Source: a virus
DNA: 21,233 nt
Reading direction: 5' to 3' (one strand)
Virus record (IMG/VR): IMGVR_UViG_3300006598_000430
Span: 1-21,233 of that record
The notes beneath the pieces were generated by a model. It worked only from the letters and a program-made list of their open reading frames with translations. It searched no databases and was not told the DNA's origin. Positions 124 to 13,185 of the stretch are shown piece by piece (the first letter of the stretch is position 1; each line of letters opens with the position of its first letter). A program made the position numbers and the translations under genes.

Positions 124-1203
124 GTGTGCGTCACTATTCACAAGTTGCTTTACGATTCATTCCCGCGTCAAATTGCAATTCCTTACCGGATTACAACAAA
201 TACTTCTGAGGAATTTTACGAGCAGATAAACCGCTATAAATCATACAAGCGTGTATTTGCTACCATTTACAATTACACATCTTCAGAAGTGTATGACAAT
301 GCTTTCCTCAACGTAGATAAGATATTCTTTGATCTTGACGGTGAGAAATCATTTGTTGAAGCAGTAAAACTCTCAAATGAGTTTGGTAAACGTAACATGC
401 GCTACCTGATGCTATATTCTGGTGCAGGATTCCACTTCTACCTCTTCACTAAGAATTACGCGGAATTGAAGAATAAGAAAGCAGCACTTTTTAGCGCACA
501 TTCATTTTTTGTAAGGAAGTTCAAGTTGACTACGATGGATGAAAAGGTTATGGGTGATGTCGCGCGTGTTGCAACAATCCCAGGAACATTTAATAATCGT
601 CGTGGTAGATACTGTATTCCTCTTACAACAGATGATCTTGAACGTGGATTGAAGTTTATACAGCGTAAGGCCACACATCAGCCACATCCATGTGATTACA
701 CGGTTTATGGTAATAAATACCTAAACATGGAAATGTTTGATGTGGGTGGAAAATACTACAACAATCGCTACTCTTCAATCGACGCACAGGACTATAGATT
801 AGAGTATGATGATGCTATTTGTATGCAGATTTCGCATGATTCTCTGCTCAAATCTCTTCCACCATGCATTTCATCCTTACTGATAAACAGTATGTCAAAA
901 CGAGTAGGTTTTAGAGGGCGCTACTTGCTTATTTCCTATTTGCGTGATAGCGGTTTCCTCTACGGTGAGATCAAAGATATATTAGAAAAATACCTTGTAA
1001 GCACACGCAATGGACGCACAGAAGCGTATCATTGCATCGTTGAGGAGCGACAACTTGATAGACTATTTGATGTTTACAACCAACCTATTTTCCCGCGTTG
1101 TGAACTTGTCAAGCAGTATGGGTATTGTCCTCATTCTGGTTACTGTGACTTTACAAGAGAGTATGGCACGAAAGATAAACATTTAGTAAAAATATACAGG
1201 TGA
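124..1203 (+). CDS. Archaeo-eukaryotic primase: PriS-like catalytic domain fused to a PriL-CTD-like Cys-rich domain
   Basis: AEP motifs FFDLD, YSGAGFHFY and DVARVATIPGTFN. The C-terminal part has LPPC...FPRC...GYCPHSGYC, similar to the 4Fe-4S domain of PriL. Confidence 0.8.
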   Translation: MCVTIHKLLYDSFPRQIAIPYRITTNTSEEFYEQINRYKSYKRVFATIYNYTSSEVYDNAFLNVDKIFFDLDGEKSFVEAVKLSNEFGKRNMRYLMLYSGAGFHFYLFTKNYAELKNKKAALFSAHSFFVRKFKLTTMDEKVMGDVARVATIPGTFNNRRGRYCIPLTTDDLERGLKFIQRKATHQPHPCDYTVYGNKYLNMEMFDVGGKYYNNRYSSIDAQDYRLEYDDAICMQISHDSLLKSLPPCISSLLINSMSKRVGFRGRYLLISYLRDSGFLYGEIKDILEKYLVSTRNGRTEAYHCIVEERQLDRLFDVYNQPIFPRCELVKQYGYCPHSGYCDFTREYGTKDKHLVKIYR

Positions 1204-1207
1204 TAAC

Positions 1208-1852
1208 ATAGAATACTTAATTGTAGATACAAGAGAACCCAAAACTGTTCAAAATAAGATTGCTCGCATTGCAAAAACGTATAATGTTGAAGTCCGTTTT
1301 GAATGCATGGAATCAGGTGATTTTGCTTGGGTTATTGATGGTGAGAAGAAGATTGTCATTGAGCGTAAATCTGTAGCAGACTTTATTAATTCTGTGCGCG
1401 ATGGACGCTTAGAAACACAACTTACCAATCTTGAACAGTTTGATGAACCGTATCTTTTCATTCATGGTAATTTCAAGAGTCTTTATTATGTCCCTTACGC
1501 TAAACAGTGGAAAACTGCACATACAGTTGGTTCCCTCTGTTCTGTGGCAGCAAGGTATGATGTAAAGATGATTCAGTTTGATACTGCTCCTCAATTATAC
1601 CATGCAATTTTCAAGATCAAGGAAATGGTAGGAAAGGGTAAGAAAATAGAAAGTGTCAAGCATAAGAAAGTCAAGTCAAGTACAAATCCACTCTATGACA
1701 TTTATCTGTCCTTACCTGGTGTAGGTGACAGACGCGCACAGAAGTTACTAGAAGCGTATCCTAAACTTTCTGGTTTGATTACTGATTACAAGAATAATGC
1801 ACTGAAGATTAAACTCCCTAAAGATACATTAGAAGCACTCAACTTTTTATGA
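1208..1852 (+). CDS. ERCC4/XPF-family nuclease with a C-terminal helix-hairpin-helix; the start is probably upstream of the ORF-track ATG (1307)
   Basis: The in-frame upstream extension contains IVDTREP, followed by GDF, IERKSVADFINSVRDGRLETQL and the HhH LPGVGDRRAQKLL. An SD AGGTGA lies at 1198-1203 and the only suitably spaced in-frame candidate start is ATA at 1208. Confidence 0.85.
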   Translation: MEYLIVDTREPKTVQNKIARIAKTYNVEVRFECMESGDFAWVIDGEKKIVIERKSVADFINSVRDGRLETQLTNLEQFDEPYLFIHGNFKSLYYVPYAKQWKTAHTVGSLCSVAARYDVKMIQFDTAPQLYHAIFKIKEMVGKGKKIESVKHKKVKSSTNPLYDIYLSLPGVGDRRAQKLLEAYPKLSGLITDYKNNALKIKLPKDTLEALNFL

Positions 1853-1863
1853 GGTGTAAGAAT

Positions 1864-2460
1864 ATGATAATTAGTATTGAAGGTGTAGAGGGTAGTGGTA
1901 AAACCACTGTCCTCAACTATTTACGTGACAATCTGACTGACTTTGAAGATATTATCTATACGGCTGAACCTTACGCTGAAGATATGCGTGAATTGATTGA
2001 GAAACATAAGGATAACCCTGAGAAACAGTTACTTTTTACGCTACTCGATCATTATGACCATATTGATTCATTCATCACGCCTGCTCTCGAAGAGGGTAAG
2101 ATTGTGATTACCGATTCCTACCTGGATGAAATCATTGCGCGCTATGGAGTGGTCCTTACGCGCGACACAGAAGAGATTATGCGCTTCTTCGATGGAAACA
2201 CACTTTTTCCTAACATTACTATCTTCTTATATGGTAATCCATCTGTATTCGCTATGCGTAATGCTAAACGGCGTAAGATAAACAATATGTCAGAAGAAAT
2301 ACAGCGTTTACAAAAGATTCAGGATAATTATATAAAACTTGCAAAAGAAGGAAAACATCGTTATTTCATTCTTGATGCAAATGGTTCTATTGACAGCGTT
2401 TGTTTCAATGTTGAAAATACCCTTCGTTATTACCTGTATCGTTATTATCATCCTGAATAA
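1864..2460 (+). CDS. Thymidylate-kinase-like P-loop NMP kinase (divergent)
   Basis: MIISIEGVEGSGKTT P-loop, EP motif, and PALEEGKIVITD. GAGGTG at 1851-1856 favours the ATG at 1864 over 1849. Confidence 0.8.
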   Translation: MIISIEGVEGSGKTTVLNYLRDNLTDFEDIIYTAEPYAEDMRELIEKHKDNPEKQLLFTLLDHYDHIDSFITPALEEGKIVITDSYLDEIIARYGVVLTRDTEEIMRFFDGNTLFPNITIFLYGNPSVFAMRNAKRRKINNMSEEIQRLQKIQDNYIKLAKEGKHRYFILDANGSIDSVCFNVENTLRYYLYRYYHPE

Positions 2461-3076: not shown

Positions 3077-3103
3077 ATAGGGAGTTTGACCCTATCTTTT
3101 TTT
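3077..3103 (+). terminator. Hairpin plus T-tract in the gap between the convergent modules
   Basis: ATAGGG-agtttga-CCCTAT (6-bp stem) then C and T7. An A5 run precedes it, so it may act in both directions. Confidence 0.55.
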
Positions 3104-3192
3104 AGATGAGTAAATATACCTCTTCAAAACAACATGCCAAAATAATACTGTTTTACTCAAAGAATTGAAGAGATTTAAAAAAGGTAAGAGGA

Positions 3193-3747
3193 TTATCCCC
3201 TTACAAACTTCCGCGTAAGGAAGTTATAGAAAAGTATCTGAAACTGCATAGAATGTTGGTATGCAGTTCTATTTCCGGTAAGAACATAATTAAACTGTGA
3301 TTCTAACCATTCTTCAAACTCTGGACTACGTAACATTGCATCGGAATCAATCTTCTGCGCATGAAGAAGTTCATGCCAAATACGTAATCCAAATCCTAGT
3401 TCATCAGTGTCCCAGGTGTTCTTTGTAACACCAACACTCTTTCCTGCACAACCACCCGCATACTTAGCACTACGGGCCTTACCATCGAAGATTACAACAG
3501 TATCATCCGCTTCAGGAATGAGAAATCCCTTCCACTCTCCTGTCATTACACGATACTTAGGTGCTTCAGTAAGGAAGTTGAACTTCCACAGTTGAGGAAT
3601 AAGGTAGAGGGAATCCTTCACAAATTCAGGATCAATGTTGTCCTCGATGTAAATATCAATTTCAATCGGTTTTACTCGCTGTGTTCCAAACACAGTAGCA
3701 ATTAAAGCAAGGAAATAGAGTTTAAACTTTTTAAAATCAAACTTCAT
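3193..3747 (-). CDS. Zincin-like metallopeptidase with an N-terminal basic/hydrophobic segment; candidate lysis enzyme
   Basis: HELLH (HEXXH) motif and N-terminus MKFDFKKFKLYFLALIATVFG. It is the last gene of the late operon, after a membrane protein. Confidence 0.65.
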   Translation of the reverse strand: MKFDFKKFKLYFLALIATVFGTQRVKPIEIDIYIEDNIDPEFVKDSLYLIPQLWKFNFLTEAPKYRVMTGEWKGFLIPEADDTVVIFDGKARSAKYAGGCAGKSVGVTKNTWDTDELGFGLRIWHELLHAQKIDSDAMLRSPEFEEWLESQFNYVLTGNRTAYQHSMQFQILFYNFLTRKFVRG

Positions 3748-3750
3748 ACA

Positions 3751-4017
3751 TCACCTCTTGATAATATTGAACAACCGGATATACCAATCTTGTCCGATTA
3801 CATCAGTAATCTCTTCATAAATCTTCTGCGCCTCTTCAGGACTAATGTAACCATCCTTGTAACTTTCATCCACAACTTTGATAATGTCCTGAATCTCTTT
3901 AAACGATACTCCTTTCCCTACAATGAATCCAATACCCACAGTAAGAAGAGTAGAAATAATCATGTAAAGAAGTCCACTATCAATTAAAAATTGTAATAAG
4001 TTATCCATGTAAATCAT
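3751..4017 (-). CDS. Small membrane protein, holin-like
   Basis: 88 aa with one clear hydrophobic segment (LLYMIISTLLTVGIGFIVG). Its position matches that of holins, after the fibre-associated genes. Confidence 0.5.
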   Translation of the reverse strand: MIYMDNLLQFLIDSGLLYMIISTLLTVGIGFIVGKGVSFKEIQDIIKVVDESYKDGYISPEEAQKIYEEITDVIGQDWYIRLFNIIKR

Positions 4018-4134
4018 TTATTCCAATTTACTTAATTCAATAATAACTTCATTACGATACTGTATAGGGACTTGTTTAATCGTCATACGTCCTGACTGAA
4101 TTGCAAATATACACATCATTACAAAAGGATTCAT
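4018..4134 (-). CDS. 38-aa CD1375/XkdX-like small phage protein (not in the ORF track)
   Basis: MNPFVMMCIFAIQSGRMTIKQVPIQYRNEVIIELSKLE*. It has a GGAGG SD, an ATGA overlap with the upstream gene and a stop abutting the next ATG. The pattern IxxGxxTIxxVPxxxRxEV resembles this family. Confidence 0.6.
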   Translation of the reverse strand: MNPFVMMCIFAIQSGRMTIKQVPIQYRNEVIIELSKLE

Positions 4135-4394
4135 AATGATTCCTCCAATGCTTCAACTTTTGTTTTGAGTTCATCAATTTCTTGCATTAAACCAGTTATA
4201 ATTAATGCAGTTATATCTACTGAATTTTTATCAGAGAGTGTGCTGATGTATTCGGGGATAGAAATGATTTCTTCATCATATTCCCATCCGCTAAACTCTT
4301 CCTCTTCAATATGTTCAACATTCGTTCTGATATAAACATTAGTTTTACCGATTTCAATAAACGGTATTGATTCTTGAGTTCCTCTAATTTTCAT
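4131..4394 (-). CDS. Small tail-fibre-associated protein (XkdW-like)
   Basis: 87 aa, acidic: VYIRTNVE...GWEYDE...EYI followed by a C-terminal coiled coil. The GGAGG SD lies in the end of the RT gene. Confidence 0.5.
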   Translation of the reverse strand: MKIRGTQESIPFIEIGKTNVYIRTNVEHIEEEEFSGWEYDEEIISIPEYISTLSDKNSVDITALIITGLMQEIDELKTKVEALEESL

Positions 4395-4397
4395 AAT

Positions 4398-5429
4398 TCA
4401 AACCTCCATTTGATAGTTGTTAATAAATGGTTGCAATGGTTTAATATATTTTTGTTCAAGTTTGTGATGATTACACCATTTAATCCAACCTCTATACGAA
4501 TTAATACTACAATATTCATTTAGAGTTAAATCTAAACCCGATTCACATGTTTTCTTTATTTTGGTCATTTTTGTTTTTAATGTTTTAGCAGTTGATTTTC
4601 TTAATAAAATGTTCTCATCGAAAAAACGATAACCAACATAATCAAGTCCACGTGAACGTGTTTTGAATACCTGTCGATCAGATTTTACTCTTAGTTTTAA
4701 ATTGCGGGCAAGATATTCTCGAATCTCATCATCAAGTTGATGAAGAAATCTTTTTGATTTATGGAATATAACGATATCATCCATATATCGGAAATAAAAC
4801 CGACATTTCTTTTCTTCCTTACACCAATGGTCAAAACCTGAAAGATATAAATTACCACTCCATTGAGAGAAATAATTGCCTATAGGTATACCGGAAGGCA
4901 CACTATCAATTATTTCATCAATTAACCATAAAACATCATTATCCTTTATTTTACGTCTATATATCTGTTTAAGAATGTCATGAGAAATAGATGGATAATA
5001 CTTATGAATATCAATCTTTAAACAATATTTTGTATCGTTCTTATGATACATTGCTTTGTTTATTCTCTTCCATGCCAGGTGAGGACCACGACCAGGAAGA
5101 GCAGAATATGTATCGTATATTAATGTTTTTATTAAAATTGGTTCAAGAATTTGCATAATTGCCCACTGACATATTCTATCTGGATAATAAGGTAATTTGT
5201 AAAGAGTTCTTACTTTTCGACCCTCTGTTTTCTCAAAGATAGTATATTCAGATGTTTTATATGTTTTATTGATAAGAGACATTTGCAAATCTTGAAGATA
5301 ATGTTCAACATCAGAGTCAACCATTTGAACTTCAACATATGAACCTTTATCTTTACGGGCATTAAGATGTGCTAATCTTAAATTGTCCATGTCATATATT
5401 TTATGATATATATTACCAATTCGTTTCAT
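4398..5429 (-). CDS. DGR-type reverse transcriptase
   Basis: 343 aa with MKRIGNIY..I...NL..A, PYYPDRICQ, LKIDIHKYYPSI, GIPIGNYFSQ (the SQ is typical of DGR RTs) and the catalytic RYMDD. It has no maturase or endonuclease extension and sits next to a TR. Confidence 0.95.
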   Translation of the reverse strand: MKRIGNIYHKIYDMDNLRLAHLNARKDKGSYVEVQMVDSDVEHYLQDLQMSLINKTYKTSEYTIFEKTEGRKVRTLYKLPYYPDRICQWAIMQILEPILIKTLIYDTYSALPGRGPHLAWKRINKAMYHKNDTKYCLKIDIHKYYPSISHDILKQIYRRKIKDNDVLWLIDEIIDSVPSGIPIGNYFSQWSGNLYLSGFDHWCKEEKKCRFYFRYMDDIVIFHKSKRFLHQLDDEIREYLARNLKLRVKSDRQVFKTRSRGLDYVGYRFFDENILLRKSTAKTLKTKMTKIKKTCESGLDLTLNEYCSINSYRGWIKWCNHHKLEQKYIKPLQPFINNYQMEV

Positions 5430-5551
5430 AATATTCTCTAAATGGATTAATCAGGTCAAGTTTTCGGTTTTACCCTACTAACATAACCGCTACACCCTAA
5501 TATTCCACCAAGAGGTGAGGACATAATTTTAACAATGCATATTTCCATTTT

Positions 5552-5682
5552 GGTGACTGCTGATATTCGAATTCGAATTCACAGGTGAATTGTTCAAATT
5601 CAGATTGAAAGGCTCTGCATTACCTGCATTAGTCCAATTCCTGCTGAAATTACCTAAGTAACCTGCTTGAAGATTCGTATAA
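5552..5682 (-). repeat. DGR template repeat (TR)
   Basis: 131-nt gap-free match to 5761-5891. All 27 mismatches are A in the minus-strand TR. It has 12 AAY codons in the VR reading frame. Confidence 0.95.
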
Positions 5683-5734
5683 AAAATCATTTATGCCCTT
5701 TTTGATAAAAAATATTTACTACATATATATCACC

Positions 5735-7126
5735 TCAACTTTGTTTTTTAATCCATGTTAGGCGACCGCCGATAATCGAATGCGAAAACACAGGCGAATA
5801 GCTCAAATTCAGATAGAAAGGCCCCGCATTACCCGCACTAGTCCAAGACCCGCCGAAACTACCCAAGAAACCCGCCTGAAGACACGCATAATCACAATAG
5901 TAGGTAGTTTCCGATCCACCATTATTGACTGTGACAAACCCGGTTTCGTTTGCTCCGTGAATATCCTTGATATACCCATCAACATTGCTGGCAAACCCAG
6001 TGCCATATTCTATATAATTATATGGTTTAGGATCAGCATCAACCCACATTTCACCGTCCTGCTGATAAGGAACAATATTAAACTCATCAGTTGCAATCCA
6101 CAACTTTCTAGCAGGATCAGTATTCGCCGTAGACCATATTCCATCTACCCAATAACGTATATTGCCCCAAAAATCTTCAATACCACAGAATTTAATCTGC
6201 TCGGTTCCATTAGTAGAACCATAAAACATACCAGAAGTATTACGTGCTCCTGTTATCTTTAAAACTGATGCGTCTACATTACCTCTACCAAGTGCAGTCT
6301 GCCCATCAAGGCTCTTGAAGAAAATAACATATAAAATCTGTAGTAACTGCATCTGATAGAATAGAAACTGCTCATATCCCTCACCATTTGCTTGTGCATA
6401 TGTTCTAAATGCAGCGTGTGTTTTGGAATTAGTAGGTGTTTTACCTGACAGGGAACGCATTTTACCATCAATTACAGCACCAGGATATGCACCAATATAA
6501 ATATTATCTTCGACATTTACACCGCGCGTATGAGCAAGACAAACAAACCCTTTACGCTCAACTCTGCTCATTTGGATGATTCTTTCAGTTCCATTTTCAC
6601 TGAATTTCCAAAACATTTTTGGAATTTCAATCATTACATCTCCATCAAGACCAGATGTAATATCAGCATTAGAACCATCAATCTTTTTTGTATAATCATT
6701 AGGATCAAGATAATAATTTACCGCATCATCCTTGAATACACAAGGACGAATACCTAATGATTTAAACGGCAATTCCCAAGAACCCCAATCAAAGTTACCA
6801 TCATTGCCCCGCATAGGGACAAATCCCGCTGCATCATCAGTATAGGTAACACTTGTTTCAGGATTCTGATTAATGGTATCAATCTTGACACCGTAGATAT
6901 TATTGCTTGAAACTGTTAAAACGTCATCTATTCTTTCATTTAACATTGTAATATCATTCTGGTTGGCGAATCTAACGATAGTATTCCAACCACTTGTTCC
7001 ATCACCTATTTTGAGTACACCTGTATCAGTTTCATACCCCAATTCGCCATTCTTAAGAACGGCACTTTCTGCTAACCAATTATTGCGCGTATCGCGTCTA
7101 ATCTGTATTGATGCTTTTCTAGGCAT
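5735..7126 (-). CDS. DGR target: Mtd-like tail fibre/receptor-binding protein with a C-terminal C-type-lectin-fold variable domain
   Basis: N-terminus IQIRRDT..NW....VLKNGELGYETDTGVLKIGDG..GWN resembles the Mtd N-terminal domain. Later come YIGAYPG, GIEDFWGNIRYWVDG and FGGSW...GPFYL...IGGRL, as in CLec-type DGR targets. It contains the VR. Confidence 0.9.
   Translation of the reverse strand: MPRKASIQIRRDTRNNWLAESAVLKNGELGYETDTGVLKIGDGTSGWNTIVRFANQNDITMLNERIDDVLTVSSNNIYGVKIDTINQNPETSVTYTDDAAGFVPMRGNDGNFDWGSWELPFKSLGIRPCVFKDDAVNYYLDPNDYTKKIDGSNADITSGLDGDVMIEIPKMFWKFSENGTERIIQMSRVERKGFVCLAHTRGVNVEDNIYIGAYPGAVIDGKMRSLSGKTPTNSKTHAAFRTYAQANGEGYEQFLFYQMQLLQILYVIFFKSLDGQTALGRGNVDASVLKITGARNTSGMFYGSTNGTEQIKFCGIEDFWGNIRYWVDGIWSTANTDPARKLWIATDEFNIVPYQQDGEMWVDADPKPYNYIEYGTGFASNVDGYIKDIHGANETGFVTVNNGGSETTYYCDYACLQAGFLGSFGGSWTSAGNAGPFYLNLSYSPVFSHSIIGGRLTWIKKQS
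5761..5891 (-). repeat. DGR variable repeat (VR) at the 3' end of the fibre gene
   Basis: Encodes YACLQAGFLGSFGGSWTSAGNAGPFYLNLSYSPVFSHSIIGGR and differs from TR only at TR adenines. Confidence 0.95.
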
Positions 7127-7299
7127 TAAGCGTCACCACCATCAATTACCGATAAATCATCACCAATCGCTAACAAATATTGCTGACGATTATCCTTGAA
7201 GATAGGAATAATATGTATAACAACCGTATTATCAATCAATTCAACAGCAGTTTCAAGTTCTGTTAATGTTTCATAAATAGTAACAATCCACTTAACCAT
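7126..7299 (-). CDS. 57-aa hypothetical protein (not in the ORF track)
   Basis: GGTGA SD then MVKWIVTIYETLTELETAVELIDNTVVIHIIPIFKDNRQQYLLAIGDDLSVIDGGDA*. Its TAA overlaps the ATG of the DGR target (TAATG). Confidence 0.65.
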   Translation of the reverse strand: MVKWIVTIYETLTELETAVELIDNTVVIHIIPIFKDNRQQYLLAIGDDLSVIDGGDA

Positions 7300-7671: not shown

Positions 7672-9513
7672 TTATTTTACTTCAACTTTACATTTTTGCG
7701 AAAAATAAACAGCACTAAGAAAAGCCAAATCTTGTGAGTTAATTGTATTATTATCCTCAAGGGGAATAACAAAAGGAATTACATATGAATTACCCGTAAC
7801 ATTATTTGTTGTTTCAATAATACCATTATTAATCCCACTTACAAAATCATGAGATTTAATTAAACCACCAACAAAAGTTGGTTCAAATAATACAATAACA
7901 CCATTATCCTTTTCCATGATTAACTTGGAATTGGTTTCAATAGTATAATGATTTCTAAAATTACCAACAATGTCTTTTTTGATAATGAAATTAAATGGTG
8001 TAACTTCTACTGTGTCATATTCTTTTGCACTTGTAGACATTGAGGTTGCATTACCTGTGTCTAATTCGAAAGTAAACTTCAGGTAATTAGGTTTAATTTC
8101 TTTAAACTTGATTATAACACGATTATCACCAAACGCTTTATTGTAAAAAGAACCAACTTCAATTACATTGTTGTTTGTTATACTAAAGAGTTTAGCATTT
8201 TTCCAGGTAGTCTGTTTGATCACCCACCGCATTATAGGGTTCTGAACAACAATGTCACCTACAAAGTCATGTTCAGGATTATAAATCTGCTTCCATTCGG
8301 ATTCTTCAGAACCCGTAGTAATAGTATCAAATACCTTACACTCACTTACATTATATTCTCCTCCTATATCAAATGCAACACGTGCTCTCTTTTCGGGTAA
8401 GAGAAATCCATAGTTAACTGCAATATTAGATAAATCATCAGTTTCTTTTTGAACTTTGATTGTATACGTTAAACCCTTTTGTGTAATATTAAACGGTTTA
8501 GTTTTAACAACAGTCCACTCACCATTTATCGGTTGATTTCTTTTTTCATCAGTTATTAATATATGAGAATGTGAACTTTCTTCAAACAAAGTTGTTGCAC
8601 GTAAATTAACTGTATTGTCTAATGATGTTATTGTAGTTATAAGATCATACAATGATTCTTTAGTTGAAAACGTCCATTTTCCATCGTTTAAAACATCAGT
8701 TTCTTCATCATTGCCTTCAAAGGTATACAAATCATCTACCACAACATTATCCCCGCTTAAAACAACGATACGTACGTCTGATGCGATTATAGCATCACTC
8801 TTCATGCGTAAGACTACACGGTAAGAACCAAGAGGGACATCCACACCCGATACAAACGTGTAAGAAATATATTCATCTTTTGCATCGAGTAAGTTGTAAG
8901 TCAGTTTATACGCGGTAGCATCATACTGTGGAGTATCAGAATCCGAATGCGTAACATCACCAGGATAGAATGCAGGGAACGGTCTATAAATCGGTATGTC
9001 TCCTGCCATAAATGCAGGGGCAGACAACTTTACACTATCCTGTGAAGTCTTGACTCTTACATTTGTAGCGCCCACGGGAAGAGCAACATGCGGAGGGAAC
9101 TCAATGTTAAAATCATTATCCCGCATTTCAGTTTCTACTTCCACAATGCGCTCATACTTGCTTGCAGGAAGATACTTACCTTCCACTGAATAATTCCTTA
9201 CACCTAACTCTTCTGAAGTTTCAGGAGCATCAGCACCTTCAATCTCAATGAAACCATCTAAGTCTGCATATTTCGTGTAGCAATATCCAGCAGAACGATA
9301 CTGTAATGCTTCTACATCTTCCGCATACTGTTCATCAGTCTTTTCACCATCATTGTAAAGATAACCTTCAAGAGTAATAGGTTGCAGATTCCTACGAATA
9401 GAAACAGTTCTCGGTTCTTTAGCGTTAATACCTGCAATCTCTTTTGTTATCTTTGAGACAGATTTCTTATCAATGTTGGAAAGAATTGGTAAATAAATAT
9501 CACCTATATACAT
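7672..9513 (-). CDS. Tail/baseplate protein, paralog of 10282-13185
   Basis: 613 aa starting MYIGDIYLP and sharing several blocks with the 967-aa protein. Confidence 0.7.
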   Translation of the reverse strand: MYIGDIYLPILSNIDKKSVSKITKEIAGINAKEPRTVSIRRNLQPITLEGYLYNDGEKTDEQYAEDVEALQYRSAGYCYTKYADLDGFIEIEGADAPETSEELGVRNYSVEGKYLPASKYERIVEVETEMRDNDFNIEFPPHVALPVGATNVRVKTSQDSVKLSAPAFMAGDIPIYRPFPAFYPGDVTHSDSDTPQYDATAYKLTYNLLDAKDEYISYTFVSGVDVPLGSYRVVLRMKSDAIIASDVRIVVLSGDNVVVDDLYTFEGNDEETDVLNDGKWTFSTKESLYDLITTITSLDNTVNLRATTLFEESSHSHILITDEKRNQPINGEWTVVKTKPFNITQKGLTYTIKVQKETDDLSNIAVNYGFLLPEKRARVAFDIGGEYNVSECKVFDTITTGSEESEWKQIYNPEHDFVGDIVVQNPIMRWVIKQTTWKNAKLFSITNNNVIEVGSFYNKAFGDNRVIIKFKEIKPNYLKFTFELDTGNATSMSTSAKEYDTVEVTPFNFIIKKDIVGNFRNHYTIETNSKLIMEKDNGVIVLFEPTFVGGLIKSHDFVSGINNGIIETTNNVTGNSYVIPFVIPLEDNNTINSQDLAFLSAVYFSQKCKVEVK

Positions 9514-10281: not shown

Positions 10282-13185
10282 TCACCTGTATGATTTATAC
10301 TTTCTATTTAACAAGTTTGAACCAAATTCTTTAGGTTCAAGATTTCTATAATAGTTTTGTTCATTAAACGATGCAAAGGAGAGATTTGTTGGTGTTATAA
10401 TCTCACTACCTTCTGTATTTGATACAGGAATGAGTGCTGCATAAGTAATCAAGTTCAATGGGTAATACCCACTGATTGTTTTATTAATAGTAATAACAGC
10501 ATTATCACCAATATCAGACTCTTTCAGTTCAATAACATGGTTATATGACGTTAATACTGTATCACCGCCTATCATTACACTTTTTGCAGATGTATCAATG
10601 GCTAATGTTGTATCATCGGTCAAATTAACAAATGAAAATTCAAGTTCACTTGCTGCACTTGTAGAAATTGTCTGAACGGTTAAATTATAACGTCCAATAT
10701 CTATATCTGTTCCAATTATACCATCAAATATTGTTATTTTCTGTGATGCAGCCGCTCCGCCATGTGAAGTGCCGGTCATTACAGTAAACGGATAACCTAC
10801 ATTTTCATAAACCATTGAATCGGTTACTTCTAAATCATAGATTAAAACATTAATATTGCCTGCACCTGCTACTGAAGATCGAATAAATAAACCCGCATTA
10901 CCATATTCAAACATTTCATCGCCAGTATAGGTTATTAATGGTGTAGATGGTTTTGTGTCGGTTCCAAGGTAGAAATATATTTCAAATGTGCGGTTTTCAT
11001 TATTATACTCACATTCAAGGTAATACATTGTTGTTACATATGCCGTAACAGTTTCTATTGCAGCGACAACTTCACTACCATCTGCACCATAACCATATTC
11101 ACCATATCCATCTACACCATATGAACCTTCACTTCCTGCATTCTGATTAAACTTAAGCAATTTAACCTTTGATTTATTACCACCTGAAGATTGTGTTGCA
11201 TCAAGTTCTAAACAACAAACATAATAGGTATTATCATAAGTAGGATCACCGGCAATTATAATACCTGCTTCACGGGTAATGGTCTTTGCATTAAGAAATT
11301 CTAATCTGATTTTATAATTACCTGTTCCTAATTTGAAATTCTTTAATTTCTTGGTAATTAGTGCATCACTATCACTCGTTATCCAAACACCAACACCATA
11401 CTTATATGCATACGCTTCTGTAAATGCACTACCATTTTCTACATCATATTCAGCAGAAGAATCAACAGCAAAATTATCAAATATCCTATTAGACTGCACG
11501 TTTGATAATGTAACATCAGTAGTATTTTGGAATATATATTCAGAACCCTGGTAACCTGAAATCATGAAGAGTGTAAACATAAAATTGCCCGACTCAACAG
11601 TATTGTTTACATACATTCCACCTTCACCAAGCACTAATGCACTACTATTCTTTGATTTACAAATACCTGCAATACATTCATCAAATATTATTGTAAAGAT
11701 ACCATTCTCACTTGTATGTTCAGTGTTTGCTAACGATGATGTTACCATTAAATCAGAAGGCGCACTAATCGCCTTCCATGAGGGCATAGTGCTGAAATCA
11801 ACATGCCAATCCCATTTGAATGAACCATTACGGATTAATTCAAAGGTAACATACAACGGAGTGAAACGAGCAAGAACTATCTCTCTACAATCTTCTGCAC
11901 CTGCATCTGATTCACCATTAAACAGAGAAAACTCAATCTCTACAAGATCAGGACGAATCTCCTTTATAATGTAACTGACATCATTGTTTTTGAATGCACG
12001 CGGATATAATCTTCCTACCTGATTATTGATGAGATTGGTTAACTCACCTGTATTATCCCAAACCTCATTTGTATCCACATGCCAACGGAAGAATGAGTTT
12101 TGAATTACTATACCCGTAGAGAAGTCATGGTTGTAATTAAACACTTGTTTCCATTCAGATTCATTTGTAGAACCATTAGTGTCAAACACCTTGACATTAC
12201 CACAATCTACTTCAGTTTCATTCTCAAATACTACCTTTGCAGTATAGGTAGGAAGAATGAATCCGTAGTTCACTTCAATAGTGTTTGCAGTATCAGTCAG
12301 TTTCTTGATGTCTACGGTTAATGTCTCATGCGTAATAACTTCAAACTCTGATGTTTCAATCGTAACCCAATGAGTATCACCCGTAGTAAAGGTTTCATTA
12401 ATCAGTTCACCACTTACACTACCTGTTACGATTACACCAATATCATCTGTTACATTTAAATCTTGTAAGCGGAATACAATCTTATAACGTCCCTTTGGTA
12501 AATCTGTGCCTACAACGGTAGTCCATTCGGTTTTTTCATCCTGTGCATTGAGCACTGTTACATAACAACCGTAAGCAGACTCCATGTAAGTCTTATCACC
12601 TGTGGATGATGCTGTTACATAGTTATCAGAGTCAAAAATAGGGAACGGTTTAAAGATGGATATTTTACCATCACTACCAACAGTTCCATACCACTCATCA
12701 ATAAACATGATTTCCCAGGGTGACTTGATTCTGACATTGGTTGCACTTGTAGGAAGAGCAATGATTGGAGGGAACTGTATTGCAAGATCACTCTCAACAT
12801 AATCAGTCTCTACACGGTATGAACATTCATAACGAGTAGCAGGAAGGAACTTGCCTGTTCCACTAAACTCACGCGCATTCTGATTCTCTACCGTGTCAGG
12901 AATATCAACATCATTGAGGACAAAGTAACCCTTCTTATTATTATACTCAACAATATTGTAGGCAGAATTACGTATCAATACCGCTTCAAGATCATCAGCG
13001 TAATCATCCGAAGTCTTACTTCCATATGCTGCTGCAACACCCGCTATAGTAAGTTCTTTCAGTTTCGGTGCAGTCTCATCAAGATCAGCATCGCCAGAGA
13101 TGAAGTTAGTTTCCTTACTTTCTTTGGTGGTTTTATTTGCTGAAAATTCCGAAACATACGGAATATAAATATCTCCAATATACAT
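10282..13185 (-). CDS. Large tail/baseplate protein with a probable lectin-like beta-sandwich insertion
   Basis: 967 aa directly after the hub gene. Paralogous to 7672-9513, with extra C-terminal domains. Confidence 0.7.
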   Translation of the reverse strand: MYIGDIYIPYVSEFSANKTTKESKETNFISGDADLDETAPKLKELTIAGVAAAYGSKTSDDYADDLEAVLIRNSAYNIVEYNNKKGYFVLNDVDIPDTVENQNAREFSGTGKFLPATRYECSYRVETDYVESDLAIQFPPIIALPTSATNVRIKSPWEIMFIDEWYGTVGSDGKISIFKPFPIFDSDNYVTASSTGDKTYMESAYGCYVTVLNAQDEKTEWTTVVGTDLPKGRYKIVFRLQDLNVTDDIGVIVTGSVSGELINETFTTGDTHWVTIETSEFEVITHETLTVDIKKLTDTANTIEVNYGFILPTYTAKVVFENETEVDCGNVKVFDTNGSTNESEWKQVFNYNHDFSTGIVIQNSFFRWHVDTNEVWDNTGELTNLINNQVGRLYPRAFKNNDVSYIIKEIRPDLVEIEFSLFNGESDAGAEDCREIVLARFTPLYVTFELIRNGSFKWDWHVDFSTMPSWKAISAPSDLMVTSSLANTEHTSENGIFTIIFDECIAGICKSKNSSALVLGEGGMYVNNTVESGNFMFTLFMISGYQGSEYIFQNTTDVTLSNVQSNRIFDNFAVDSSAEYDVENGSAFTEAYAYKYGVGVWITSDSDALITKKLKNFKLGTGNYKIRLEFLNAKTITREAGIIIAGDPTYDNTYYVCCLELDATQSSGGNKSKVKLLKFNQNAGSEGSYGVDGYGEYGYGADGSEVVAAIETVTAYVTTMYYLECEYNNENRTFEIYFYLGTDTKPSTPLITYTGDEMFEYGNAGLFIRSSVAGAGNINVLIYDLEVTDSMVYENVGYPFTVMTGTSHGGAAASQKITIFDGIIGTDIDIGRYNLTVQTISTSAASELEFSFVNLTDDTTLAIDTSAKSVMIGGDTVLTSYNHVIELKESDIGDNAVITINKTISGYYPLNLITYAALIPVSNTEGSEIITPTNLSFASFNEQNYYRNLEPKEFGSNLLNRKYKSYR

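Follow-up and report, generated by a model that had tools for sequence, protein, structure and literature searches.

The diversity-generating retroelement (DGR) of Bordetella phage BPP-1, with the gene order mtd-avd-TR-brt, is the paradigm for elements in which a reverse transcriptase (RT) carries the information of a template repeat (TR) into a variable repeat (VR) of a target gene. Avd, which BPP-1 has, occurs in many DGRs although not in every one. A second described system is that of ANMV-1, a putative archaeal virus with a 114-bp TR/VR pair, a C-type-lectin fibre target (AdtA), 9 AAY codons and more than 10^18 possible variants (PMC4372165), and a catalogue of 31,007 metagenomic DGRs (PMC8144416) comes from the same IMG metagenome collection as the sequence studied here. 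We describe a DGR in IMG/VR virus record IMGVR_UViG_3300006598_000430, a free, linear record of 21,233 nt with an estimated completeness of 31% that was analyzed in its entirety and is referred to below as the window. We hold with high confidence that region 4018-7299 is a complete DGR within an accessory tail-fibre cassette, a confidence that applies to the DGR and the cassette and not to the host. The virus itself is a long-tailed double-stranded DNA virus, as judged from its tape-measure and tail-tube genes. All repeat and gene coordinates are in window numbering, and all of the DGR features are on the minus strand.

The element resembles that of BPP-1 in its adenine-specific changes, in the position of VR at the 3' end of a fibre gene, in the Mtd_N domain and C-type-lectin variable domain of the encoded fibre, in an RT that aligns with the BPP-1 enzyme (bRT, 8ub7), and in a GC-rich VR end that is paired with an A-containing TR end. 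It differs from BPP-1 in lacking both Avd and a VR hairpin, in its order of target-TR-RT, in a variable domain that is nearer to that of TaqVP, and in the modest similarity of the RT (100 bits). The element of ANMV-1 (KP703175) belongs to a tailed, putatively archaeal virus of an anoxic habitat rich in methane and has the order target-TR-RT-small open reading frame (ORF), a C-type-lectin fibre target rich in AAY codons (9 there, 12 here) and an RT that is 34% identical, and ANMV-1 is also the best match of the terminase from a sister genome of the window virus (G002, described below). However, the two viruses have no other genes in common at the BLAST level, TBP is present in ANMV-1 and was not found in the window lineage, and the small ORF of ANMV-1 was drawn by its authors as Avd, whereas the only ORF between target and RT in the window is the TR.

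The closest cultured relative of the cassette is in Psychrobacillus phage Perkons (MT325768; ORF176-TR-ORF175 RT), in which the RT is 55% and the target 38% identical, the order is target-TR-RT without Avd, and all 18 of the mismatches in a 73-nt TR/VR segment are at A. The Avd-less target-TR-RT layout of the window is therefore not unique. Perkons differs in being a 137-kb phage of a Bacillota host with no backbone genes in common, and in GenBank its RT is annotated while its target is a 'hypothetical protein'. Two deposited archaeal virus genomes, vir215 (NC_092586, Methanomassiliicoccales) and vir525 (BK063673, Methanosarcinales), encode RTs that are 40-43% identical to that of the window, and the RT gene of vir215 has a related tail-protein gene immediately upstream, but the target is only 27% identical and neither genome has detectable structural-gene similarity. 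As publications on DGRs of archaeal viruses date back to 2015, this kind of element was already known, and the novelty that the original prediction attached to an archaeal DGR was overrated, given the precedence of ANMV-1 (2015, PMC4372165), vir215, vir525 and the 31,007-DGR catalogue (PMC8144416). In the supplements of Roux et al. (2021), related metagenome identifiers led to a different DGR cluster. The general picture of what DGRs are is unchanged by the present element, but three aspects of it go beyond the textbook, namely the presence or absence of the cassette among near-identical viruses, a Bacillota-type fibre pair in a backbone that has affinities to archaeal viruses, and activity that is evident although no Avd can be recognized.

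Template and variable repeats

TR (5552-5682) and VR (5761-5891), which are offset by 209 nt, form a gapless alignment of 131 nt, and all 27 of their mismatches are opposite TR adenines on the coding (minus) strand, with 17 A>G, 8 A>T and 2 A>C. In VR, 27 of the 42 TR adenines are changed compared with none of the 89 other positions (Fisher p = 1.3e-17). Realignment thus bore out in every detail the 131-nt gapless pair with 27 adenine-only mismatches that had been claimed from the sequence, and the ORF list gave the same coordinates for the RT (4398-5429) and the target (5735-7126). That the repeats are an ordinary duplication or gene-conversion tract with an adenine bias by coincidence, for which only the existence of a direct repeat speaks, is excluded by this statistic (of the order of 1e-17), by independent values of 1e-16 to 1e-27 in five other contigs, by the adjoining DGR-type RT and by the 12 AAY codons in TR. 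The features of the cassette, in which L and G numbers designate loci and genomes of related viruses, are as follows.

4018-7299, minus strand: entire DGR-fibre cassette of 3.3 kb, carried by the window and by L034, L035, L006 and L007, absent from G001 (L057) and G002 (L060)
7126-7299, minus strand: upstream-most ORF of the cassette, 57 aa, occurring only together with the cassette
5735-7126, minus strand: DGR target, a tail fibre or receptor-binding protein of 463 aa, with Mtd_N at the N-terminus and a predicted C-type-lectin fold at the C-terminus
5761-5891, minus strand: VR, encoding target residues ~413-455
5761-5770, minus strand: candidate initiation of mutagenic homing (IMH) site at the VR 3' end, reading GGCGGTCGCC
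5552-5682, minus strand: TR, with 42 adenines and 12 AAY codons
5552-5561, minus strand: candidate IMH*, the TR counterpart of IMH, reading AGCAGTCACC
5430-5551, minus strand: TR-RT spacer, presumably within the TR-RNA, with no significant fold
4398-5429, minus strand: DGR-type RT, 343 aa, matching phrog_1423 and aligned with the BPP-1 RT
4131-4394, minus strand: 87-aa acidic ORF directly after the RT, matching phrog_18126, with a homologue in a Metabacillus prophage

The VR ends 8 codons before the stop codon of the target, and only ~50 nt separate that stop from TR. Read in frame, TR contains 12 AAY codons and 25 mutable codons, which corresponds to ~10^21.6 possible protein variants. At the VR 3' end, GGCGGTCGCC is identical in all six of the VR copies where every TR reads AGCAGTCACC, and homology stops just beyond. 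The three A-to-G differences at this end are fixed in every VR while the adenine columns upstream are variable. The two sequences match what is expected of an IMH/IMH* pair and are candidates for that role by analogy with BPP-1.

If the element follows the BPP-1 paradigm, TR would be transcribed, probably together with the spacer and the RT message, and the RT would copy the TR RNA into cDNA while misincorporating opposite template adenines. The cDNA would then replace VR at the 3' end of the fibre gene, in a direction that would be set by the GC-rich IMH at the VR end versus the A-containing IMH* at the TR end.

Reverse transcriptase

The RT belongs with the phage RT family phrog_1423 (1.3e-116), and its best match among solved structures is the BPP-1 RT (8ub7; 1.1e-27, 100 bits); group II intron RTs reach 68 bits and other RTs at most 64 bits. 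The sequences GIPIGNYFSQ and YMDD, which had been pointed out at the outset, are both present and align with the corresponding BPP-1 motifs, GIPIGSLTSQ (motif 4, IGxxxSQ) and YMDD, respectively. The NCBI group II RT/maturase model scores 113 bits on this protein compared with a cut-off of 300. By tblastn its relatives are the RTs of phage Perkons (55%), crAss-like phages (40-48%), vir525 (43%), vir215 (40%) and Bordetella phages, and on these alignments we classify the enzyme as a DGR-type RT.

Relatives of the window show deletions within the RT gene. In both L034 (9412-9421) and L035 a segment of ~480 nt (window equivalent ~4550/4560-5034) is deleted at a 10-nt microhomology, with loss of YMDD, and the VRs of these two RT-deleted loci still differ mutually at 20 positions. 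Additional deletions within the RT gene, corresponding to 4797-4987, 4928-5139 and 5034-5140, are suggested by landfill contigs of low depth.

Target fibre protein

The target has an N-terminal Mtd_N domain (PF18454, residues 7-45, 9.4e-15) and matches the tail-protein family phrog_5302 (7e-70). A profile of the 18-member target family matched TaqVP (5VF4; 1.2e-6), the DGR variable protein of Thermus aquaticus (PMC6328139), and the second matched stretch spans the C-terminal VR of both proteins. A first full-length model of the target, based on the 18-sequence alignment, was discarded (pLDDT 36.8), and residues 76-463 were modeled from a 112-sequence alignment with a mean pLDDT of 97.3. Foldseek placed TaqVP first (7e-11, probability 1.0), followed by Mtd variants, formylglycine-generating enzymes (FGE), EgtB and Treponema TvpA. 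All of these proteins have the C-type-lectin/FGE-like fold in common, and TaqVP, Mtd and TvpA are DGR variable proteins. The C-terminal part of the target is thus predicted from the model to be a C-type-lectin fold, which is what the structure prediction proposed for the C-terminus had been expected to reveal, with TaqVP and Mtd as the top matches.

The likeness to TaqVP, which is the best match of the variable domain by both profile and structure, extends to a VR at the extreme C-terminus and a GG.W ... IGxR-like pattern; on the other hand, TaqVP is a cellular protein rather than a virion fibre, the identity is 16% and the TM-score is ~0.5. Hence the description of the fibre as Mtd-like holds for its N-terminal domain (Mtd_N, 9e-15) but not for its variable domain, which is nearer to TaqVP than to Mtd. 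As VR encodes the last ~43 residues of the C-type-lectin domain, the ligand-binding face of the fibre would be rewritten at up to 25 codons.

Diversification in natural populations

A scan for the RT in viral contigs identified 43 loci, and in five of them (L001, L004, L006, L034 and L035), which are from different metagenomes, both repeats are present. The 156-nt TR region is 100% identical to that of the window in L001, L007, L034 and L035 and 99% identical in L006, while the DNA that flanks TR in these relatives is only 88-96% identical to the window. In the five other contigs, VR differs from its own TR at 25-37 adenines and at 0-2 other positions (p = 1e-16 to 1e-27). The five VRs that accompany an identical or nearly identical TR are variable at 29 of 42 adenine columns and at one of the 89 others, and in pairwise comparisons the VRs differ at 18-30 positions, nearly all of which are adenine columns. 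An invariant VR across populations had been named as a sign of inactivity, and the contrary was seen, as VR varies while TR is 99-100% constant.

Logan contigs of four runs were also placed on 4398-7126, and in two of the runs, X1 and X20, the depth of the contigs collapses over 5763-5944. In X1, from an anaerobic digester, a depth of 62-150 drops to 6.9 across 5763-5853, and TR is spanned by a contig that has no mismatches and breaks off at 5772. In X20, from a landfill, VR is covered only by contigs with depths of 8.6 and 3.7 (25 and 18 differences, respectively), where the flanks have depths of 200 and 235. An assembly collapse that is confined to VR is the signature, at the level of contigs, of many VR variants coexisting in a single sample.

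The DGR is evidently active in natural populations, a conclusion that is drawn from contig comparisons and from which we infer homing itself. What weighs against it is that the population data are contigs rather than reads. If instead the element were a fossil, the VR differences of the window would date from past activity and homing would have ceased. Decay does occur in the lineage, as the RT deletion that removes YMDD in L034 and L035 demonstrates, and the absence of Avd and the reliance on contigs would fit such a fossil as well. In the window, however, the RT ORF is intact with all motifs present, TR is fully conserved in contigs that differ by 4-12% in their flanks, and VR is heterogeneous within samples as well as between contigs, with 18-30 pairwise differences that are almost solely in adenine columns, and we regard a fossil as improbable. 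The identification of the locus as a DGR, as originally made, was confirmed by the type of RT, by the adenine-specific TR/VR differences, by a C-type-lectin target with Mtd_N and by the VR variation in populations.

Absence of Avd

All of the testable defining features of a DGR were found in the window except Avd, which is itself not universal, with the function of the IMH assigned by analogy. Three results count against a mechanism that is in all respects like that of BPP-1. Searches for Avd (PF05635, NF033474 and TIGR02436) gave no match in the window, in G001/G002 or in the records of L034/L007; no hairpin follows VR, with no inverted repeats of 8 nt or more near it; and the TR-spacer RNA folds no better than shuffled sequences (z = -1.3). 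Because Avd, a VR hairpin and a significant TR-spacer fold are all lacking, priming and homing may differ in detail from those of BPP-1. No Rfam family was detected anywhere in the window. A DGR that diversifies in nature without a recognizable Avd bears on the generality of the RT-Avd mechanism of BPP-1.

Two ORFs were considered as accessory genes and rejected. The sole ORF between the target and the RT, a 53-aa ORF at 5529-5690, is merely what results when TR is translated in the frame of VR. The 87-aa ORF downstream of the RT was rejected as an Avd or DGR helper, as it is acidic and accompanies the fibre gene in a prophage that has no RT. It is 42% identical (1e-24) to an 87-aa ORF that directly follows the homologous fibre gene of the RT-less Metabacillus prophage, and because it forms an adjacent pair with the fibre homologue there, it is better regarded as a partner of the fibre.

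At 5722-5737 (minus strand), the TGA stop of the target overlaps a Shine-Dalgarno-like motif, GAGGTGA, which is followed by ATG-TAG-TAA, an empty start at the position of avd in BPP-1.

The cassette as an accessory module

Scanning with an alignment of primases yielded two sister genomes, one of 64.7 kb that is 93% complete (G001) and one of 69.4 kb that is complete, with direct terminal repeats (G002). The window is 82-93% identical to L057 (G001) and L060 (G002) over positions 1-3954/4016 and from 7273/7292 onward, and at most ~30 nt lie between these flanks in the sister genomes. What is missing from both G001 and G002 is window ~4018-7299, that is, the 57-aa ORF, the fibre, TR, the RT and the 87-aa ORF. 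The RT has no match in G001-G004, where G003 and G004 are the genomes that hold L064 and L065, and homologues of the 57-aa ORF were found only in L034/L035, with none in G002. In the sister genomes the start codon of the 88-aa gene, which in the window lies beyond the cassette, directly follows the ribosome-binding site that in the window stands before the 57-aa ORF. The whole cassette is therefore a presence/absence polymorphism among viruses that are 82-93% identical in their flanks, and near-identical viruses with and without it in like habitats are a natural comparison of what a hypervariable fibre buys a virus.

The fibre is 46% identical over nearly its full length, including the VR-equivalent stretch, to that of a PBSX-like prophage in Metabacillus sp. 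B2-18 (CP088245.1, L076), where it is followed, as in the window, by the 87-aa ORF (42%). That prophage differs in having neither an RT nor a TR and in its contractile tail, and after the pair it encodes a holin and an Amidase_2 endolysin. Further fibre homologues, 45-50% identical, are in Heyndrickxia, Clostridium tyrobutyricum and Salinibacillus. Judged by protein similarity, the nearest named kin of the cassette are Bacillota phages and prophages.

We tentatively suggest, as a possibility that we consider less likely than its negation, that the cassette is a self-contained, Avd-independent plug-in receptor-binding module, made up of the fibre, its 87-aa partner, TR and RT, which a methanogen-virus backbone acquired from the gene pool of Bacillota phages and prophages. 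The programmable lectin tip would then allow a fibre that originated in bacterial phages to be retargeted to an archaeal surface, and the same digesters and landfills would harbor sister viruses of both kinds, those that have the module and those that lack it.

The host

The virus was found in metagenomes of digesters, landfills, sludge and wastewater (24 studies), and gene kinship and habitat together point to a methanogenic or other anaerobic archaeon as the probable host. For the tblastn comparisons a set of 50,697 phage records was used. In this set the primase matches only PhiF1, a Methanobacterium virus (29%, 6e-25), and Haloarcula tailed viruses, and the ERCC4 nuclease matches PhiF1 only. 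The order PD-(D/E)XK nuclease-primase-ERCC4 in G002 is that of PhiF1 ORF56-55-54, and the dCTP deaminase (39%) and short ThyA (31%) of G002 also match PhiF1. The intein-bearing large terminase (TerL) of G002 scores 182+104 bits with ANMV-1 and at most 83 bits with any bacterial phage. The ThyA of G002 attains 167.6 bits on the methanogen-type model TIGR03283, near the cut-off of 174.6. No peptidoglycan hydrolase domain was detected among ~50 G002 and window proteins. Window-wide megablast against the phage records gave no matches, and neither the tail tube of the window nor the putative capsid protein of G002 had a tblastn match in them.

Other observations weigh against an archaeal host or are neutral. 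The nuclease domain of TerL has weaker matches to 130 bacterial phage records; the ThyA of G002 also matches many bacterial phages at 25-29%; and the clamp loader is 36-39% identical to gp44 of T4-like cyanophages, which are the source of the best matches of PolB as well. No TBP, PCNA or pseudomurein endopeptidase (PeiW) was found, the RT and fibre are closest to those of Bacillota phages and prophages, and there are terminator-like hairpins with T-runs at the convergent junction 3077-3204. Relatives of the primase in species-representative genomes are in metagenome-assembled genomes (MAGs) that are labeled Bacteroidetes, Bacillota, Acholeplasma and Ignavibacteriaceae. A search for homologues of the clamp loader recovered only viral-looking metagenome contigs.

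The same DGR could thus be that of a virus with a bacterial host, for example an anaerobic Bacillota, in which case the likeness to archaeal viruses would reflect replication and packaging genes whose ancestry is deep or mosaic. This would agree with the fibre (46%) and 87-aa ORF (42%) being related to the pair in the Metabacillus PBSX-like prophage, with the fibre homologues (45-50%) in Heyndrickxia, C. tyrobutyricum and Salinibacillus, with an RT that is 55% identical to that of phage Perkons, with a clamp loader and PolB nearest to those of T4-like phages, and with relatives that are binned with bacteria and hairpins that resemble terminators. However, the cassette is an accessory insert and hence has little say on the backbone, and MAG labels that span four phyla fit the mis-binning of free virus contigs. 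The primase, ERCC4 and PD-(D/E)XK genes have their only or best matches in PhiF1, in the same gene order, and TerL is far nearer to that of ANMV-1 than to that of any bacterial phage. Moreover, the complete sister genome has no peptidoglycan hydrolase, whereas in the Metabacillus prophage a holin and Amidase_2 follow the homologous genes. On balance we consider a bacterial host a distinctly weaker candidate than an archaeal one. The assignment to a probable archaeal virus in the original prediction is plausible, given the PhiF1-like primase/ERCC4/PD-(D/E)XK block and the ANMV-1-like TerL, and is qualified by the T4-like clamp loader and PolB and by the Bacillota-type cassette. With that host, the element would be one more well-documented, evidently active DGR for the short list of those tied to probable archaeal viruses, and as most of the interest claimed for it rested on the domain of the host, it should be kept in mind that an archaeal host is only probable.

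Three lines of evidence on the host were set aside. ANMV-1 was rejected as the sole relative of TerL when a search with the C-terminal extein gave the 130 weaker bacterial-phage matches; ANMV-1 remained the best match overall. An RFC-like clamp loader and a methanogen-type ThyA were withdrawn as archaeal markers after tblastn matched them to T4-like gp44 and bacterial-phage ThyA, respectively. Binning in MAGs was rejected as evidence on the host, since four bins represent four phyla.

Neighboring genes and related viruses

The primase (124-1203, plus strand), ERCC4 (1307-1852, plus strand) and thymidylate kinase (1849-2460, plus strand) form a block that is kept in relatives down to 41% primase identity. 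These relatives (L044, L045, L064 and L065) are on contigs of 35-75 kb that also encode PolB, ribonucleotide reductase, a clamp loader and an SNF2 helicase and that lack a DGR RT, as judged from the absence of an RT match in G003/G004 (L064/L065). The contigs with this block look like members of a broader group of viruses from engineered anoxic habitats that is as yet undescribed.

Two hairpin and T-run sites lie at 3077-3204, exactly between the convergent replication and late transcription units, and one of them reads both ways. The late operon is closed by a 184-aa HELLH protein (3193-3747, minus strand) and an 88-aa membrane-like protein (3751-4017, minus strand), which is the usual place of a holin/lysin pair. 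In the distant relative L044, the HELLH homologue (34%) is among the replication genes and the 88-aa homologue is in the structural module, and because the two are kept in separate modules there, a dedicated lysis pair is doubtful.

The 613-aa (7672-9513, minus strand) and 967-aa (10282-13185, minus strand) tail proteins have a common N-terminal part of ~500 aa with 30% identity. In the corresponding region of G002 (29481-36384), an 1149-aa version takes the place of the 613-aa gene, with an HNH gene and two more genes (307 and 208 aa) after it. The receptor-binding locus is a hot spot of module exchange, the DGR cassette aside. The genome of G002 also contains LAGLIDADG inteins in its ribonucleotide reductase and large terminase (L066-L069; 43903-47064 and 64676-67198), together with a free-standing LAGLIDADG ORF and an HNH ORF within the tail module.

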